From Escherichia coli (GTDB lineage Bacteria > Pseudomonadota > Gammaproteobacteria > Enterobacterales > Enterobacteriaceae), in the NCBI RefSeq assembly GCF_044324875.1, contig NZ_CP172185.1: a stretch of 64,000 nt of DNA. One strand, 5' to 3'. A program made the position numbers and the translations under genes. Numbering within the stretch: the stretch's first letter is position 1; each line of letters begins with the position of its first letter. Positions 7,496-57,373 of this stretch are shown here, one piece after another. A model generated the notes under the pieces. It was not told where the DNA came from. It made no database searches and saw nothing but the letters and a program-made list of their open reading frames with translations.

Positions 7496-7638
7496 AAAAA
7501 CACCCCTTCTTATGTTTGCTGTCGCGCAGGCTGGAAGCCCGAGGTTTTTTGTTAATGTGGCGGCAGAGGTAGCCGGACCTTGTAGATACTGCGAAATCTG
7601 GCACTGAATCGGTTAACTGTCCAGTCGACGGCCTTTTG

Positions 7639-7815
7639 TGTGATATCGGTCACATAAATATAGGGGGTAGAGAGGTAATTGACGTGATGCTCATCACAAA
7701 ACTATTGTGTAAAAAAGCAACAAGGCGGCGATTTTCGCTAAAAATGGCATTTAAATGTGAGTAATGTCACATTTTTGTTTTGTTGGTTTGTTGAATCTTT
7801 GTGATCTGAATCACA
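7639..7815. promoter_or_regulatory. mtlA upstream control region with an array of CRP-type sites
   Basis: TGTGA-N6-TCACA matches at 7639-7654 (tgtgatatcggtcaca), 7683-7698 (cgtgatgctcatcaca), 7756-7771 (tgtgagtaatgtcaca), 7800-7815 (tgtgatctgaatcaca), plus a half-site at 7843-7847. Confidence 0.6.
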
Positions 7816-8031
7816 AGATATTTTCTTACGGCGTTCACCTGATGTGATCTACAGCATGTTATGCCCTCGTCATAAAATCGTTATGTAACTAAGCAACTCA
7901 TCACCTCTAAAAATTATTCTTTGGTGTTATGGCGAGAATCGCGAACCCGAATTATTGTCAAAATATCAGCCTGACTCCCTTCTGGCTGCCAGCCAAAAAA
8001 CAACACTGATAAACGTGAATCCGAGGCAGAT

Positions 8032-8394
8032 ATGTTTCTAAACTATTTCGCGTTGGGAGTGCTGATCTTCGTCTTTCTGGTGATTTTTTATGGAATCATC
8101 GCGATACATGACATCCCTTATCTGATTGCCAAAAAGCGCAACCACCCCCATGCCGACGCTATTCATACAGCGGGCTGGGTGAGCCTGTTTACTCTGCATG
8201 TTATCTGGCCGTTTCTGTGGATCTGGGCGACGCTCTATCAACCGGAGCGCGGCTGGGGCATGCAGTCACATGTTGCGTCGCAAGAGAAAGCGACTGACCC
8301 GGAAATCGCCGCACTTTCTGACCGAATTTCCCGGCTGGAGCACCAACTCGCCGCCGAGAAAAAGACTGACTATTCCACGTTCCCGGAGATCTAA
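8032..8394 (+). CDS. yibI: Small inner-membrane protein, DUF3302 family
   Basis: 120-aa [24 protein letters not shown] with N-terminal TM segment; GAGG-like SD upstream; paralog of yiaW at 17175. Confidence 0.85.
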
Positions 8395-8396
8395 AT

Positions 8397-9533
8397 ATGG
8401 ATCTATTGATTGTTTTAACTTACGTGGCGCTGGCGTGGGCGGTCTTTAAAATCTTCCGCATTCCGGTGAATCAGTGGACGCTGGCGACGGCGGCGCTGGG
8501 AGGCGTGTTTCTGGTGAGTGGTTTGATTTTGTTGATGAACTACAACCACCCTTACACTTTTACCGCGCAAAAGGCAGTGATAGCGATCCCCATCACGCCA
8601 CAGGTGACGGGAATTGTTACTGAAGTCACCGACAAAAATAATCAGCTTATTCAGAAGGGCGAGGTGCTTTTTAAGCTCGACCCGGTTCGTTACCAGGCGC
8701 GAGTTGACAGACTTCAGGCTGACCTGATGACGGCGACGCATAATATAAAGACGCTGCGCGCGCAGCTCACTGAAGCGCAGGCCAACACCACCCAGGTTTC
8801 AGCGGAGCGCGACCGTCTGTTTAAAAATTATCAACGTTACCTGAAAGGCAGCCAGGCGGCGGTGAATCCGTTCTCGGAACGTGACATCGACGATGCGCGG
8901 CAAAACTTCCTCGCGCAGGACGCGCTGGTGAAAGGCTCGGTGGCGGAGCAGGCGCAGATCCAGAGCCAGCTCGACAGTATGGTTAACGGCGAGCAATCGC
9001 AGATTGTGAGCTTAAGAGCGCAACTTACTGAAGCAAAATATAACCTTGAGCAGACTGTCATTCGCGCACCAAGCAATGGCTACGTTACTCAGGTACTGAT
9101 CCGCCCAGGTACATACGCAGCTGCCTTGCCGCTACGTCCGGTGATGGTTTTCATCCCCGAGCAAAAACGGCAAATTGTCGCCCAATTTCGGCAGAACTCG
9201 CTGTTACGTCTGAAACCCGGCGATGATGCGGAAGTGGTGTTTAACGCGCTACCTGGGCAGGTGTTCCACGGCAAACTGACCAGTATTTTACCTGTCGTGC
9301 CAGGCGGTTCGTATCAGGCGCAAGGGGTATTGCAATCATTAACGGTCGTGCCCGGCACGGACGGTGTGCTGGGAACCATTGAACTGGACCCCAACGATGA
9401 TATCGATGCCTTACCCGACGGCATCTACGCCCAGGTGGCGGTTTACTCCGACCATTTCAGCCATGTTTCGGTGATGCGAAAAGTGCTGCTAAGAATGACC
9501 AGCTGGATGCATTATCTTTATTTGGATCATTGA
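8397..9533 (+). CDS. yibH: HlyD-family membrane fusion protein (periplasmic adaptor)
   Basis: 378-aa ORF, N-terminal TM segment, long coiled-coil region (RLQADLMTA...), starts 3 bp after yibI; paralog of yiaV. Confidence 0.85.
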
Positions 9534-14883: not shown

Positions 14884-15083
14884 TCATCATTCCCCCAATG
14901 GCTGGCTAATTGTCAGCCATTTTTTAAACTATCTCAAAATTTGCGATTTTTGAGAGAGTTTTAGTTATCTCTGTAACCCTTGCCCGTAAATTCGTGATAG
15001 CCGTCGTAAAGCTGTTACCGACTGGCGAAGATTTCGCCAGCCACGTCTACCCTTGTTATACCTCACACCGCAAGGAGACGATC

Positions 15084-16622: not shown

Positions 16623-16653
16623 TATAAGAAGCTGGTCGCATTGGGTATTCATT

Positions 16654-16738
16654 GCCTGATGCGACGCTTACGCGTTTTATCATGCCTACGGGGACCTGAC
16701 CGTAGGCCGGATAAGGCGTACACGCCGCATCCGGCATA
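16654..16738. repeat. REP-type palindromic elements downstream of aldB
   Basis: gcctgatgcgacgcttacgcg ... ccgtaggccggataaggcgtacacgccgcatccggc. Confidence 0.6.
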
Positions 16739-17174
16739 AACAAAGCGCACGTTGTTACAATTTACGTTTTAAACCTACGTGCGCAATAACCCAATAACCC
16801 AGACTACGCCAACAGAAGTGCGTTTCTGGGGCGTGTTTTGCCAGGAGTTTAATCTCGCGTTTCGATGGTGAGCGGGCGAACCAGACCATAAATCACCATT
16901 GGCGTTCCGAGGCCAATCAGCAATAAACGGTAGATAATTGAAGGTTTAATACGCTTAATCTGTACTGTGGATGTTTTACTGGAGTTATTCATTAGTTTGG
17001 CCAATAGTTCCATTATTTCAATATGATAAGCCTCGCACTGTTGAAAAGCCAGGCTGCACATTTCAGAAAGTATATAAAAAACAATATGTCGTTATATAAA
17101 TAAGGAAATTGCACCGCATTATGGTATTTCATAATATGCGTTAATTGTTCTTTTCTATATTCTCTGAGGGAAAT

Positions 17175-17498
17175 ATGTTCCTGGATTATTTTGCATTGGG
17201 AGTGCTTATTTTTGTATTTCTGGTGATATTCTATGGGATTATTATTTTACATGATGTTCCCTACCTGATTGCTAAAAAACGTAATCATCCACATGCCGAC
17301 GCCATTCATGTTGCTGGTTGGGTAAGTCTTTTTACGTTACATGTTATCTGGCCATTTTTGTGGATTTGGGCCACGCTTTACCGCCCGGAGCGGGGATGGG
17401 GAATGCAAAACCATGACTCCTCCGTTGTGCAACTACAACAGCGTATTGCCGGGCTGGAGAAACAGCTCGCCGACATCAAATCCTCTTCTGCCGAGTAA
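17175..17498 (+). CDS. yiaW: Small inner-membrane protein, DUF3302 family (yibI paralog)
   Basis: Track ORF starts at TTG 17145; likely true start ATG 17175 after gaggg SD; 107 aa [21 protein letters not shown]. Confidence 0.85.
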
Positions 17499-17503
17499 TA
17501 CTT

Positions 17504-18640
17504 ATGGATTTACTGATTATTTTAACCTATGTGGCTTTCGCATGGGCAATGTTTAAGATCTTCAAAATTCCTGTAAATAAATGGACCATTCCCACAGCGG
17601 CCCTGGGTGGCATATTTATTGTCAGCGGTTTAATTCTGTTAATGAACTATAACCATCCGTATACCTTTAAAGCGCAAAAAGCGGTTATTTCTATTCCTGT
17701 TGTCCCACAGGTGACAGGCGTGGTGATCGAAGTGACGGACAAGAAAAATACGCTGATTAAAAAAGGTGAGGTGCTATTTCGACTGGACCCGACGCGTTAT
17801 CAGGCGCGGGTGGATCGGCTGATGGCGGATATCGTTACCGCAGAACATAAACAGCGGGCGTTGGGCGCAGAGTTAGATGAGATGGCGGCGAATACTCAGC
17901 AGGCAAAGGCCACGCGGGATAAATTCGCTAAAGAGTATCAGCGTTACGCACGCGGCAGTCAGGCGAAAGTAAACCCGTTTTCAGAACGTGATATCGATGT
18001 GGCGCGGCAAAATTATCTGGCACAGGAAGCCTCCGTAAAATCAGCGGCGGCGGAACAAAAACAGATCCTGAGCCAGCTGGATAGCCTGGTGTTGGGTGAA
18101 CATTCTCAAATCGCCAGCCTGAAAGCACAGCTCGCGGAAGCAAAATATAACCTTGAGCAGACGATAGTGCGTGCGCCGAGCGATGGTTATGTGACCCAGG
18201 TACTGATTCGTCCGGGTACCTATGCCGCGTCGCTGCCGCTACGTCCGGTGATGGTGTTTATACCCGATCAGAAACGACAAATCGTGGCGCAGTTCCGTCA
18301 GAACTCCTTGCTGCGACTGGCTCCTGGCGACGATGCGGAAGTGGTGTTTAATGCTCTGCCAGGTAAGGTATTCAGCGGTAAGCTGGCAGCCATTAGTCCA
18401 GCCGTTCCCGGCGGAGCTTATCAGTCGACCGGCACCTTACAGACGTTAAACACAGCGCCGGGTTCAGATGGCGTTATCGCGACCATTGAACTGGATGAGC
18501 ATACTGATTTGAGCGCATTACCAGACGGTATTTACGCCCAGGTGGCGGTCTACTCTGATCATTTCAGCCATGTCTCGGTGATGCGCAAAGTACTGTTACG
18601 CATGACCAGCTGGGTGCATTACCTTTATCTCGATCATTAA
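17504..18640 (+). CDS. yiaV: HlyD-family membrane fusion protein (yibH paralog)
   Basis: 378-aa [23 protein letters not shown]..., same architecture as yibH. Confidence 0.85.
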
Positions 18641-19611
18641 TCTTCGCTTTCCGCCGTTTGTTCAGGCCGCAGTTGCTGCGACTGAGCAAGCTGGTGGCGA
18701 ATTTCACGCAGCATTTCATCCAGCACATACTGGACCCGCCAGGGCTGGTATTCCCGTTTACGGAAGATAGCCACCAGATCCAGCCACCATTCATACGGGT
18801 GCTGAAAGCAGGGCACCAGCGTGCCGTCTTGCAGGTCGCTCTGCACACTTTTGTCTGGCGCAAACACAATCCCCAGGTGATTTCGTGCCAGCTCCAGCGC
18901 AGATTGCGTGTTGTCGCAAACGTAATTTCCCTTCACGCGATAATCCCGCACCTCTTTACTCCCGGCGACGTTGAAGCGCCAGATATTCGCGTCGTCGATC
19001 ATCATCGAGTCGATCAAAATACAGGAGTGATGTTCGAGTTCGTCAGGACGGCTAATGGGATGTTTCTCAAGATAGCGCTGGCTGGCATAAGCGGTTACGG
19101 CATATTGGGTAATAAAACTGGCAACCAGCGATTCATCTTTTGGTTGGGCGTAGCTGATTAAAACATCACAATCATCGGGAAATTCGACGCCTTCATAAAA
19201 GGCATTACGCTCAAGATTGCAGGTTTTTAGCGATAAGGTGATATCACCGATATCTTTAATTTTATCGATTACATGTTTGGATAAATAGGTAATTATGCCG
19301 GTTGGTGCATAGATAGTGACCCGACCACGTTTCTCATGCTTATAATCTGCAATAAAATTATTAAGCTGCTCGTTTCTGTCCAGCATGTCGTTGATGTACG
19401 GTAACAGCACGGTGCCAAAAGGTGTGAGCATCAGCTGTCGGGTGGTTCGGTCAAAGACTTTTAAACCCACTTTTGATTCAAAATCAGCAAGATATTTGCT
19501 GACGTTGGCCTGTGCGATGCCAAGTACAGTCGCGGCATGGCTGATATTTTCACTGGCAGCGATTACCGAGATAATTTTTAACTCCCGGTACTTAAGTTGT
19601 AATTTTGTCAT
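18637..19611 (-). CDS. yiaU: LysR-family transcriptional regulator
   Basis: 324-aa ORF with N-terminal HTH ([27 protein letters not shown]); convergent with yiaV and overlapping it by 4 bp. Confidence 0.9.
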
Positions 19612-19734
19612 CGCAACAGCCCAATTATATATAATTTTATATATTACTATATAAATATGAATCTTGCACCGGATAAATTGTAAGCATTACTATGCCGACT
19701 CTTTTTTATCTTATTTTAAAATGGAATACCGGAC

Positions 19735-20475
19735 ATGTTAATTAACCGCAATATTGTGGCGTTATTTGCGTTGCCTTTTATGGCAAGCGCAACTGCTTCT
19801 GAATTATCCATTGGTGCTGGTGCGGCTTATAATGAATCGCCTTATCGCGGTTATAATGAAAATACAAAGGCAATTCCGCTGATTAGTTATGAAGGTGATA
19901 CTTTTTATGTTCGTCAGACCACGTTAGGTTTTATTCTGTCGCAAAGTGAAAAAAATGAACTTAGCCTGACCGCATCCTGGATGCCGCTGGAATTTGACCC
20001 TGCCGATAATGACGATTATGCCATGCAACAGCTTGATAAGCGTGATAGTACGGCTATGGCGGGGGTTGCCTGGTATCACCACGAGCGTTGGGGAACCGTG
20101 AAAGCCTCTGCGGCTGCGGACGTTCTGGATAACAGCAACGGCTGGGTGGGGGAGCTATCGGTATTCCACAAAATGCAGATAGGTCGCCTGTCGCTGACAC
20201 CTGCGCTGGGCGTTCTCTATTATGACGAGAATTTCAGTGACTATTACTATGGCATTTCAGAGAGTGAGTCCCGTCGTAGCGGTCTGGCAAGTTATTCCGC
20301 GCAGGATGCCTGGGTGCCCTATGTCAGCCTGACGGCAAAATACCCGATAGGAGAGCACGTCGTATTGATGGCGAGCGCAGGATACAGCGAGCTGCCGGAA
20401 GAGATTACCGACAGCCCGATGGTTGATCGTAATGAGAGTTTTACCTTTGTCACTGGCGTGAGCTGGCGTTTTTAA
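19735..20475 (+). CDS. yiaT: Outer-membrane protein, MipA/OmpV family
   Basis: 246-aa ORF with signal peptide and C-terminal ...SWRF beta-barrel terminus. Confidence 0.85.
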   Translation: MLINRNIVALFALPFMASATASELSIGAGAAYNESPYRGYNENTKAIPLISYEGDTFYVRQTTLGFILSQSEKNELSLTASWMPLEFDPADNDDYAMQQLDKRDSTAMAGVAWYHHERWGTVKASAAADVLDNSNGWVGELSVFHKMQIGRLSLTPALGVLYYDENFSDYYYGISESESRRSGLASYSAQDAWVPYVSLTAKYPIGEHVVLMASAGYSELPEEITDSPMVDRNESFTFVTGVSWRF

Positions 20476-20499
20476 TTCACCGGTGGATGTCGGTGCGGC

Positions 20500-20610
20500 T
20501 GGCCTACGCTCTCGCACCGACTTGTAGGCCTGATAAGACGTGTTAAGCGTCGCATCAGGCAATGTGCACCCTACGGTGGATGCGGCGCGAGTGCCTTATC
20601 CAACCTACGG
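20500..20610. repeat. REP-type palindromic elements at the yiaT side of the accessory locus
   Basis: gtaggcctgataagacgtgttaagcgtcgcatcaggc and ggatgcggcgcgagtgccttatcc units. Confidence 0.6.
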
Positions 20611-35723: not shown

Positions 35724-35822
35724 GCCGGATGCGGCTAAAACGCCTTATCCGGCCTACAAATTCTACCAAATTCAATATATTGCAGAAATCATGTAGGCCT
35801 GATAAGCGTAGCGCATCAGGCA
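35724..35822. repeat. REP-type palindromic elements between ysaA and avtA
   Basis: gccggatgcggctaaaacgccttatccggcctac ... gtaggcctgataagcgtagcgcatcaggc. Confidence 0.6.
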
Positions 35823-54421: not shown

Positions 54422-54673
54422 CGCTAAATAATAGAGCAACCTTTAATAATCTTCTGCTGAATAAAGATTGTCTCATATATTAATTTTATGAGATTTTTTT
54501 AGGATTATATCAAGGAGAAGAAACGAACTTATTAAGCTAGAATAGCCACGGGTGCTTGAGACTGTTTGTCTCAGGTATTCACCGAAAGGCAGACAGAGAA
54601 AAGCCCCACCTGACTATAAATCAAAGTGTACTGCACCCATTTTGTTGGACGATGAAATGGAATAGCCCCTGAT

Positions 54674-55195
54674 ATGTCAAAGCCAAAATACCCTTTTGAA
54701 AAGCGCCTTGAAGTCGTGAATCACTACTTCACTACTGATGATGGTTACAGGATCATCTCGGCACGTTTTGGTGTCCCCCGAACCCAGGTCAGGACATGGG
54801 TTGCCCTCTATGAAAAACATGGAGAAAAAGGTTTAATTCCCAAACCTAAAGGTGTTAGTGCTGATCCTGAGTTGCGTATTAAGGTCGTGAAAGCTGTGAT
54901 CGAGCAGCACATGTCCCTTAATCAGGCTGCTGCTCACTTTATGCTTGCTGGTAGTGGTTCTGTAGCCAGGTGGCTGAAGGTTTATGAAGAGCGCGGAGAA
55001 GCTGGTTTACGCGCGCTCAAGATTGGCACCAAAAGAAACATTGCAATATCAGTTGATCCAGAAAAAGCGGCATCAGCATTGGAGCTGTCAAAAGACCGAC
55101 GCATTGAGGATCTTGAAAGGCAAGTTCGATTTCTTGAAACGCGGCTTGTGTATCTAAAAAAGCTGAAAGCCTTAGCTCATCCCACGAAAAAGTGA
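54674..55195 (+). CDS. insJ: IS150 transposase OrfA (HTH)
   Basis: 173-aa ORF MSKPKYPFEKRLEVVNHYF...; slippery heptamer A-AAA-AAG at 55156-55162 in frame near its 3-prime end. Confidence 0.9.
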   Translation: MSKPKYPFEKRLEVVNHYFTTDDGYRIISARFGVPRTQVRTWVALYEKHGEKGLIPKPKGVSADPELRIKVVKAVIEQHMSLNQAAAHFMLAGSGSVARWLKVYEERGEAGLRALKIGTKRNIAISVDPEKAASALELSKDRRIEDLERQVRFLETRLVYLKKLKALAHPTKK

Positions 55196-56455: not shown

Positions 56456-56827
56456 ATGAATAAACTGCTTTTACTGTTGATAATGCTCTATCAACGACAT
56501 CTTTCTCCTCGCAAAGGATACCGCTGTGCTTACAGTGTGTTGTACCAAACGCAGGGATGTTCGGGAGCAGTCAAAGAGATTATTCAACAGAAAGGTGTTA
56601 TTGCAGGCTGGGGCGAGATACGTCAGCGTTTTGCAGATTGCCGACTTGCGGCACAGACAATCAGGCAGAAGCAACACCTGAACGAGGTAATACGTAAAAA
56701 GAAGAATAATAATTGTGATTGTTCCGGGTGCGATGGTGCGGTCTGTCGTGATTGCGACATTCCGGTGCCGGATCTGGATTGTTCCTGGGACTGTTCTTCT
56801 CTACATATAAAGCGTTTTTTCCAATAA
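56456..56827 (+). CDS. YidD-like (DUF37/hemolytic domain) protein with Cys-rich C-terminal tail
   Basis: 123-aa ORF; N-terminal LYQRHLSP...C...KGVIAGWGEIRQRFADC resembles the YidD family pattern; C-terminal CDCSGCDGAVCRDCD cluster. Confidence 0.5.
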   Translation: MNKLLLLLIMLYQRHLSPRKGYRCAYSVLYQTQGCSGAVKEIIQQKGVIAGWGEIRQRFADCRLAAQTIRQKQHLNEVIRKKKNNNCDCSGCDGAVCRDCDIPVPDLDCSWDCSSLHIKRFFQ

Positions 56828-56852
56828 AAAAATCCCCGCCAAATGGCAGGGA
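56826..56852 (-). terminator. Rho-independent terminator of cspA
   Basis: On the minus strand: stem tccctgcc / ggcgggga followed by ttttttt, about 30 nt after the cspA stop. Confidence 0.55.
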
Positions 56853-56880
56853 TCTTAGATTCTGTGCTTTTAAGCAGAGA

Positions 56881-57093
56881 TTACAGGCTGGTTACGTTAC
56901 CAGCTGCCGGGCCTTTAGCGCCGCTTTCGATGGTGAAGGACACTTTCTGACCTTCGTCCAGAGATTTGTAACCATCGTTCTGGATAGCAGAGAAGTGTAC
57001 GAACACGTCTTTAGAGCCATCGTCAGGAGTGATGAAGCCGAAGCCTTTGTCAGCGTTGAACCATTTTACGATACCAGTCATTTTACCGGACAT
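56881..57093 (-). CDS. cspA: Major cold-shock protein CspA
   Basis: 70 aa [38 protein letters not shown] with RNP1/RNP2 motifs. Confidence 0.95.
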
Positions 57094-57373
57094 AGTGTAT
57101 TACCTTTAATAATTAAGTGTGCCTTTCGGCGATATGGCGTGCTTTACAGATTTTGAAGCGTTAAAGGAATGTGCACTACGAGGGGTATCAACGATAACTC
57201 TTGAAGGGACTTGCCTTACTACACTGCTTTAATGGTCTGTACGTCAAACCGTTGATGTGCATTAAGCCACGCATTGGCGGGTGATGCAACAATTATTTTT
57301 CATATTTATGATTAATCGGTTGGAAAACGGTCCTGTCATCAGGACCGTAAACAGCAATAAAGTGGATAAAAGT

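Follow-up and report, generated by a model that had tools for sequence, protein, structure and literature searches.

Paired DUF3302 and EmrA-type adaptor genes of Escherichia coli as a conserved module that appears to lack a canonical pump

Two gene pairs in a 64,000-nucleotide stretch of an Escherichia coli chromosome (contig NZ_CP172185.1; "the window" below means the whole of this stretch), yibI-yibH and yiaW-yiaV, each encode a small DUF3302 membrane protein and, immediately downstream, a periplasmic adaptor. An earlier note on this DNA had taken them for orphan adaptor modules, having seen neither an inner-membrane pump nor an outer-membrane channel gene beside them; the annotated neighbours (mtlADR, yibF, selAB, yiaY, aldB, yiaU and yiaT) bear out that no pump or TolC-like channel gene adjoins either cassette in E. 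coli, but we found that a canonical pump is missing family-wide, across 51 lineages, while the pair itself is conserved. The cassettes are better described as a conserved two-protein membrane/periplasmic module without a canonical pump. The cassette genes were already known; as an exporter that spans the envelope, the DUF3302-adaptor module may be of a kind not yet described.

All four open reading frames lie where the note had placed them, in two same-orientation, paralogous cassettes separated by 9.1 kb (the note had given about 9 kb):

yibI: 8032-8394, plus strand; DUF3302 inner-membrane protein of 120 amino acids
yibH: 8397-9533, plus strand; EmrA-type periplasmic adaptor of 378 amino acids
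yiaW: 17175-17498, plus strand; DUF3302 paralogue of 107 amino acids
yiaV: 17504-18640, plus strand; adaptor paralogue of 378 amino acids

The window matches chromosomes of several sequenced E. coli strains at 100% identity; the genes are annotated there as yibI, yibH, yiaW and yiaV, with yibI and yiaW assigned to DUF3302 and yibH and yiaV to the HlyD family; Pfam, fold and annotation agree in pairing a DUF3302 membrane protein with a membrane-fusion-type adaptor in each cassette, as had been proposed. The gaps between the genes, put at 3-5 bp in the note, measure 5 nucleotides (nt) for yiaW-yiaV but only 2 nt for yibI-yibH, where the Shine-Dalgarno GGAG of yibH sits within the 3' end of yibI. 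Both pairs are real, translationally coupled two-gene operons. The yiaW reading frame is extendable to a TTG at 17145; homologues favour the ATG at 17175. In agreement with the note, which had called their function unknown, the cassette genes are uncharacterised in the searchable literature, as is DUF3302 (subscription journals not covered), and yiaV is listed as an uncharacterised adaptor under TCDB 8.A.1.1.4 (PMC10971958).

The DUF3302-adaptor pair as the unit of conservation

Tripartite efflux systems are classed by their inner-membrane pump, which may belong to the RND, ABC, MFS or PET families, and adaptor and pump genes are normally linked. In the present family the linked gene is that for DUF3302: a YibH-like adaptor lies directly after it in 120 of the 123 loci with enough sequence, over a range that runs from Campylobacterota to Enterobacteriaceae and also takes in Proteobacteria and Thermodesulfobacteriota. 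Two samples contribute to this count. The first comprised 72 loci from species-representative genomes, and in every one of the 68 with enough downstream DNA the start of a YibH-like open reading frame lies between -4 and +10 nt from the end of DUF3302; Alcanivorax, Rhizobium, Shewanella, Pseudomonas, Aeromonas and Ferrimonas are among these genomes. For the second, a divergent query brought in 80 metagenome loci; among the 55 informative divergent loci, 52 have the same arrangement and the remaining 3 are fusions, described below. Several divergent DUF3302 members lie on contigs too short to inform. Unbiased clustering of flanking open reading frames returned the DUF3302 and adaptor families as the only ones common to distant taxa. 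By this measure of gene order, the conserved unit is the DUF3302-adaptor pair and not the adaptor alone.

YibI matches the Pfam family DUF3302 (PF11742) with E=3.3e-41, the match covering positions 1-76 of the 77-position model. It has two transmembrane (TM) helices, a loop rich in His and Asp that is nearly invariant, and a tail resembling a coiled coil. Among 72 non-redundant homologues, H26, D27, P29, A33, R36, H38, P39, H40, D42, A43, H45, W49, S51, H56, W59, P60, W63 and W65 are each at least 95% conserved. A search of 1.84 billion representative proteins gave 819 DUF3302 clusters at 50% identity; the best 150 of these 819 matches are all small proteins. DUF3302 is also better conserved than the adaptor that it accompanies, for example 64% against 43% identity in Alcanivorax. 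Its topology is ambiguous by charge counts, and a profile search of the PDB found no relative of DUF3302, only weak compositional matches to TM segments.

The order of the two genes resembles that of AaeXAB, YdhIJK and YtcA-MdtNOP, in which a small membrane protein gene is likewise followed by a gene for an EmrA-clade adaptor. Unlike in these PET/FUSC systems, no FUSC/PET pump gene comes after YibH or YiaV, and unlike AaeX and YdhI, DUF3302 is far better conserved than a typical small accessory protein and unrelated to DUF1656: we rejected the idea of DUF3302 as a divergent AaeX/YdhI on an hhalign probability of 0.2%, ruled out the N-terminus of YibH as a DUF1656 relative and found no BLAST similarity between YibI/DUF3302 and YtcA. 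A second resemblance is to AcrZ, in that DUF3302 is a small inner-membrane protein tied to a tripartite-type assembly. AcrZ, which binds and modulates the AcrB pump, has a single TM helix and is not needed for assembly, whereas DUF3302 spans the membrane twice, is encoded together with an adaptor rather than a pump, and is the most conserved component of its system. A role in anti-phage defence has no support from PADLOC, which returned no defence-model match for the yibI, yiaW and yiaV proteins and just two coiled-coil-type matches (E about 0.005) for YibH.

An EmrA-like adaptor and its membrane segments

YibH matches the Pfam families CusB_dom_1 (the former HlyD family), HlyD_D23 and Biotin_lipoyl_2. 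It passes the 94.9-bit cutoff of the general adaptor model TIGR01730 with 99.9 bits, YiaV falling just under with 87.5, and both are far under the 390.8-bit cutoff of the EmrA/EmrK family TIGR00998 (113.5 bits for YibH, 110.6 for YiaV). By sequence both proteins are nearest to MdtN and EmrA/EmrK, the best NCBIfam matches of YiaV, but stay far under the cutoffs of these families, and the best E. coli BLAST match of YibH is MdtN (27% identity, E=5e-22). In an AlphaFold2 model of YibH with a predicted local distance difference test score (pLDDT) of 83, two helices (2-19 and 26-50) precede a lipoyl domain that is split by an alpha-hairpin (97-152 and 161-218), followed by a beta-barrel with a low-confidence loop at 303-320 and by a conserved, amphipathic C-terminal helix (355-374); a membrane-proximal domain is absent. 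The top Foldseek match of this model is EmrA in EmrAB-TolC (8ZAL/8ZAR; TM-score 0.63-0.68, E=6e-21), with MacA, AcrA and MexA also matched.

EmrA is a hexamer that has one N-terminal TM helix per subunit and docks tip-to-tip on TolC, and its C-terminal helix is preceded by a long coil, which doubles back onto the hairpin (PMC13139468). YibH shares its domain order of anchor, lipoyl domain, long alpha-hairpin and barrel with a long flexible loop, as well as the lack of a membrane-proximal domain; hairpin length agrees within a few residues, the hairpin-tip region can be aligned, and the sequence alignment over residues 54-285 is almost free of insertions and deletions, so that the periplasmic reach of YibH in E. 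coli is EmrA-like. It differs from EmrA in its sequence, which is about 20% identical and far below the EmrA/EmrK cutoff, in its two N-terminal helices, in a C-terminal helix that begins 4 residues past the last barrel strand, and in its genetic setting, since there is no adjacent DHA2 MFS pump gene and a DUF3302 partner is obligate for YibH but absent for EmrA. By its anchor YibH belongs to the adaptor family, two N-terminal helices instead of one being atypical. The loop at 17-28 that joins these helices, with 2.6 Lys plus Arg and zero Asp or Glu, is cytoplasmic by charge, which puts the YibH N-terminus outside and the adaptor domains in the periplasm. At the other end of the molecule, a hairpin-tip segment, R/K..L......S..[DE][IVL]D, is kept in nearly all family members.

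Conservation is unevenly spread along the adaptor. Compared with 10 distant homologues, YibH has regional identities of 0.59-0.67 in the TM segments and 0.58 in the last 39 residues, against 0.29 in the hairpin and 0.35 in the barrel; in these alignments the pattern is the reverse of what would be expected of a membrane segment serving as a mere anchor.

In the natural fusions, DUF3302 is joined in frame to the C-terminal helix of the adaptor only (...RK.LLRM.SW.NY...H), and the rest of the adaptor is gone. One such protein, P0207, occurs in two contigs (L079:6001-6318 and L080:4810-5127), and another (L110:10001-10468) has a different junction, indicating two independent events. No adaptor gene follows these mini-fusions; in L079 and L080 the next genes encode SulP and PPK2, and contig L067 has the order DUF3302-adaptor-SulP-PPK2, which is likely to be ancestral to that of L079. 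The fusions argue that the C-terminal adaptor helix may be the contact partner of DUF3302, and that the C-terminus of DUF3302 would lie on the periplasmic side, like the adaptor.

Covariation between the two proteins was measured over 72 natural pairs. The top inter-protein pairs fell in the adaptor TM region 19 times against 8.4 expected and were depleted in the hairpin (4 against 12.9 expected; permutation p about 0.004), a weak and only suggestive result that favours a link between DUF3302 and the adaptor TM region. A mirror-tree correlation of r=0.76 was set aside as evidence because shared phylogeny explains it.

Operon partners and possible functions

We surveyed the neighbourhoods of 172 cassettes from 51 lineages. 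In this set, phmmer searches with AcrB, MacB, EmrB, AaeB, YdhK and MdtO found no same-strand operon partner; the FUSC/PET queries among them (AaeB, YdhK and MdtO) had zero matches in any locus, and EmrB-like neighbours were absent from the flanks save in L027, where an unrelated MFS gene lies on the other strand at a distance of 4.8 kb. Individual candidates were discarded as partners: the RND genes near L120, L162 and L109 have AcrA-like adaptors of their own, the ABC gene near L071 is cysA and runs the other way, and the large downstream open reading frames that might have been hidden pumps in Aeromonas, Pseudomonas and Rhizobium encode RadD, PBP4 or MalT-like proteins or are spurious high-GC frames.

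Outer-membrane factors, by contrast with pumps, were found. A TolC/NodT-family factor gene lies within 1.5 kb, in operon, in 7 of the 51 lineages, with gaps of 0-16 nt across these operons; the factor precedes DUF3302 and adaptor in L084/85, and follows them in L101, L135, L137, L107, the complete genome of Sulfurovum sp. NBC37-1 and Hydrogenimonas. That of L135 scores above the NodT cutoff of TIGR01845. In L137 a response regulator and a histidine kinase precede the operon, which ends after the factor in stop-rich sequence, and the sole extra gene of L084/85 encodes a soluble 118-residue protein without a Pfam match, so that neither operon encodes a further membrane protein besides DUF3302, adaptor and factor. 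The Campylobacterota operons, with DUF3302, adaptor and a NodT-type lipoprotein factor at gaps of 0-16 nt, are laid out like canonical NodT-factor efflux operons, except that the position of the pump is taken by a two-TM protein of 120-130 residues.

The adaptor fold and the presence of an outer-membrane factor gene in some operons place the module in the world of tripartite efflux. Within it, we give roughly even credence to the proposal that DUF3302 and the membrane segments of the adaptor constitute the inner-membrane part of a TolC-dependent conduit. A YibH hexamer would dock tip-to-tip on TolC, whose gene is not linked to the cassettes in E. coli, and YibI, probably with both termini outside, would combine with the TM hairpin and C-terminal helix of YibH into an inner-membrane component that replaces a conventional RND, ABC, MFS or PET pump. 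Its functional site would be the DUF3302 cluster H26, D27, R36, H38, P39, H40, D42, H45 and H56. More tentatively, and at clearly less than even confidence, we suggest that these parts make up an unrecognised class of inner-membrane translocator, a ring of two-TM subunits with a His/Asp-lined path, which with a TolC/NodT channel would form a complete, pump-less tripartite exporter driven by membrane potential or a proton relay; its substrates might be small ions or metal/phosphate species, at which neighbouring genes of the Na+/H+-exchanger, SulP and PPK2 families hint.

Several observations weigh against this proposal. DUF3302 has no obvious energy-coupling element and no invariant acidic residue inside the membrane, and the mini-fusions, having no adaptor, indicate that it can act without one. 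Hairpin length spans 61 to about 123 residues, roughly two-fold across the family. A linker-fused AlphaFold2 run on the pair, with a paired alignment and without contact readout, had a predicted TM-score (pTM) of 0.48; in it pLDDT rose by 8-11 points in the C-terminal helix and fell somewhat in the N-terminal helices. Flanks of 1.5 kb or more on both sides are available for just 20 of the 51 lineages, and pump detection relied on E. coli reference proteins, from which exotic pump families could escape. Secondary transporters do occur nearby: a Na_H_Exchanger (CPA) gene begins 0-13 nt after the factor in Sulfurovum (L172:11364-12593) and in L135 (6605-7810), and a SulP gene follows the adaptor in L124 and L067, so that in some lineages a secondary transporter could be the real inner-membrane partner.

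Data from E. coli bear on the proposal in both directions. In its favour, fragments of the yibI promoter are induced 5.6-fold in human urine, yibH having been detected as well, and a yibI deletion mutant of strain UTI89 competes poorly in urine (competitive index 0.33) and shows reduced adherence to bladder cells (PMC5404293). On the other side, phenotypes are mild: an IS1 insertion in yiaW arose during adaptation to macrophages, but disruption of yiaW alone had no effect in the macrophage assay (PMC5495878), and yibH has served as a neutral integration site (PMC5852967). A yiaW deletion is reported, in work cited in PMC12844161, to raise transformation efficiency.

The main rival, possible though rather doubtful, is close to the earlier note: YibH and YiaV would be orphan adaptors that serve transporters encoded elsewhere, with DUF3302 as an AaeX- or AcrZ-like accessory subunit and a partner that varies by lineage. 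Besides the Na_H_Exchanger and SulP genes named above, a Na_H_Exchanger gene lies near L098 (7887-9107) and SulP genes lie near L107 and L079/80, as this alternative would allow; a CPA transporter would in itself be an unusual member of a tripartite-type operon. Some PET/FUSC-family proteins of E. coli have no adjacent adaptor, and aaeXAB, ydhIJK and ytcA-mdtNOP likewise put a small membrane protein before adaptor and pump, yet DUF3302 is unrelated to the DUF1656 proteins, and 51 lineages without an RND, ABC, MFS or PET operon partner are hard to square with the usual linkage of adaptor and pump. Nor would one expect operons with a factor and no transporter (L137 and L084/85), an accessory subunit that surpasses its adaptor in conservation, or a membrane anchor that is the best-conserved part of an adaptor.

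PPK2 or Ppx genes recur no more than a few kb from the cassette in unrelated lineages, namely L083, L089, L108, L067, L079/L080 and L172 (Ppx-GppA in Sulfurovum), and in Shewanella (L071) genes for a sulfate ABC importer adjoin it on the opposite strand. Each of the CPA, SulP and polyphosphate associations is limited to 2-3 lineages, and these SulP, polyphosphate and sulfate-importer neighbours may, as genomic context goes, hint at a substrate or be chance. They lend something to another, unlikely explanation, that no export is involved: DUF3302 would be an ion- or metal-binding, sensing or regulatory membrane protein, for instance a modulator of SulP, CPA or polyphosphate metabolism, and the adaptor-like protein a periplasmic scaffold or tether. 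The near-invariant His/Asp cluster would suit such a role, as would the mini-fusions, which lose the whole adaptor, keep DUF3302 and one helix and still adjoin SulP and PPK2, and what the E. coli deletions affect is adhesion, transformation efficiency and growth in urine, not drug efflux. What this explanation leaves unaccounted for is the retention of the hairpin-tip motif in nearly all members and of a full EmrA-like fold under purifying selection; if there is no trans-envelope duct, it is difficult to see why an operon would include an outer-membrane factor gene, and the neighbour associations each cover just 2-3 lineages.

A further neighbour is a DUF3313 lipoprotein of about 223 residues with a lipobox, encoded directly beside the cassette in five loci (L063:9289-9960, L055:9193-9861, L044:11626-12294, L072:9070-9849 and L103:1-207) from Serratia, Enterobacter, Franconibacter, Pseudomonas and one metagenome contig.

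The two E. coli copies

YibI and YiaW are 73% identical, and YibH and YiaV are 77% identical over 378 amino acids without a gap, their genes being 70% identical in DNA; chance falls far short of explaining such similarity. The pairwise comparison that the earlier note had proposed for dating the duplication shows it to be old: between yibH and yiaV the proportions of nonsynonymous (pN) and synonymous (pS) differences are 0.16 and 0.76, with a nonsynonymous distance (dN) of 0.18 and saturated synonymous sites, and between the cores of yibI and yiaW pN is 0.06 and pS 0.87. With pN far below pS, purifying selection acts on both copies. A neighbour-joining tree places a yiaV clade from Escherichia, Citrobacter and Pseudocitrobacter outside the main Enterobacterales clade, in which yibH groups with the single copies of Serratia, Pantoea, Rahnella and Budvicia; the tree holds further paralogous lineages. 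Citrobacter sp. MGH106 carries three divergent DUF3302-adaptor cassettes (L014, L040 and L049) and Serratia grimesii two (L057 and L063), indicating that the family has diversified repeatedly, with at least four paralogous lineages in Enterobacterales.

The two cassettes differ in distribution. yibIH is core, occurring in 5425 of 5426 complete E. coli genomes, and yiaWV is accessory, occurring in 3804 of the 5426 (70%); genomes without yiaWV are missing all of the yiaW-yiaV-yiaU-yiaT block, which lies between aldB and a GH127 gene, and in some strains hicAB occupies the site. Inverted repeats resembling repetitive extragenic palindromes (REP) bracket this block (16643-20610), whose GC content at third codon positions is 0.45-0.54 (0.45 for yiaW), against 0.58-0.64 for yibIH and the core neighbours. 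The features that surround the cassettes are:

yiaU: 18637-19611, minus strand; LysR-family regulator by annotation
yiaT: 19735-20475, plus strand; MipA/OmpV-family outer-membrane protein by annotation
mtlA-yibI divergent intergenic region: 7608-8031; holds the yibIH promoter, AT-rich with a GC content of 0.40
left REP-like inverted-repeat arms: 16643-16732; flank the yiaWVUT block, repeats I1 and I2
right REP-like inverted-repeat arms: 20544-20610; pair with I1 and I2 of the left side
operator-like element, copy 1: 17068-17119, plus strand; upstream of yiaW, candidate YiaU (LysR) site
operator-like element, copy 2: 19623-19674, plus strand; in the yiaU-yiaT intergenic region

The product of yiaT is an outer-membrane protein that the earlier note had not mentioned. 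It is unlikely to be a dedicated outer-membrane partner: YiaT-like genes do not extend beyond enterobacterial synteny, and Enterobacter, Lelliottia and Leclercia carry yiaU-yiaT without yiaWV.

The two operator-like elements form an AT-rich direct repeat of 52 nt. Their core, TATATAAATA-N6-TTGCACCG, occurs at just these two places in the window, with the TTGCACCG part exact; Escherichia, Citrobacter and Pseudocitrobacter keep the element upstream of yiaW, and Escherichia sp. (L037) and Citrobacter youngae (L035) keep the core of the yiaU-yiaT copy in the corresponding position. LysR genes resembling yiaU also lie beside cassette copies that are not syntenic (L063, L049, L064 and L165). As the LysR gene that adjoins yiaWV has a parallel in aaeR beside aaeXAB, we infer by analogy that YiaU may control yiaWV as AaeR does aaeXAB, the element being a candidate operator. 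The convergent genes yiaV and yiaU share 4 nt (18637-18640), and they are among the listed E. coli excludon pairs, which have overlapping antisense transcription (PMC12288877).

Scans of the cassette regions with promoter and terminator consensus sequences gave nothing above chance. A constitutive sigma-70 promoter without an H-NS flag is listed for yibIH in the mtlA-yibI region, and the promoters of the yiaWVUT block are flagged as H-NS-associated (PMC3946193). Together these data are consistent with yibIH as the core copy, induced in urine, and yiaWV as a putative inducible, H-NS-silenced accessory copy under YiaU.

At Rfam gathering thresholds no known RNA element lies near the cassettes. 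Rfam matches elsewhere in the window are a sok antitoxin RNA (plus strand, 54550-54703), a cspA thermoregulator (minus strand, 56826-57253) and the small RNA ES036 (35758-35800). In strain EBJ003 an IS200C transposase gene (L001:19571-20029) sits between yiaY and aldB and is absent from the window strain (14884-14993).

That the cassettes are decaying or functionless duplicates whose small open reading frames are not real genes, as the absence of yiaWV from 30% of E. coli genomes and the use of yibH as a neutral integration site (PMC5852967) might suggest, is extremely improbable and effectively refuted by the pN/pS values of both genes, the near-universal presence of yibIH, the 819 family clusters and the active promoter and deletion phenotype of yibI (PMC5404293). 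The same urine-induced promoter and fitness defect (PMC5404293), with DUF3302 being more conserved than the adaptor, speak against untranslated small reading frames, a possibility that the earlier note had named as fatal to its own reading.

The DUF3302-adaptor family is widespread, and the sole constant partner of its adaptor is a two-TM protein of 110-130 residues. Even if the adaptor serves transporters encoded elsewhere, the C-terminal helix, the mini-fusions, the His/Asp cluster and the candidate YiaU operator offer experimental handles, as do the factor-carrying operons of culturable Sulfurovum. If the pair is indeed an inner-membrane machine, it would represent a new class of trans-envelope exporter, and would give a role to four E. 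coli genes of unknown function, one of which affects uropathogenic fitness in urine.

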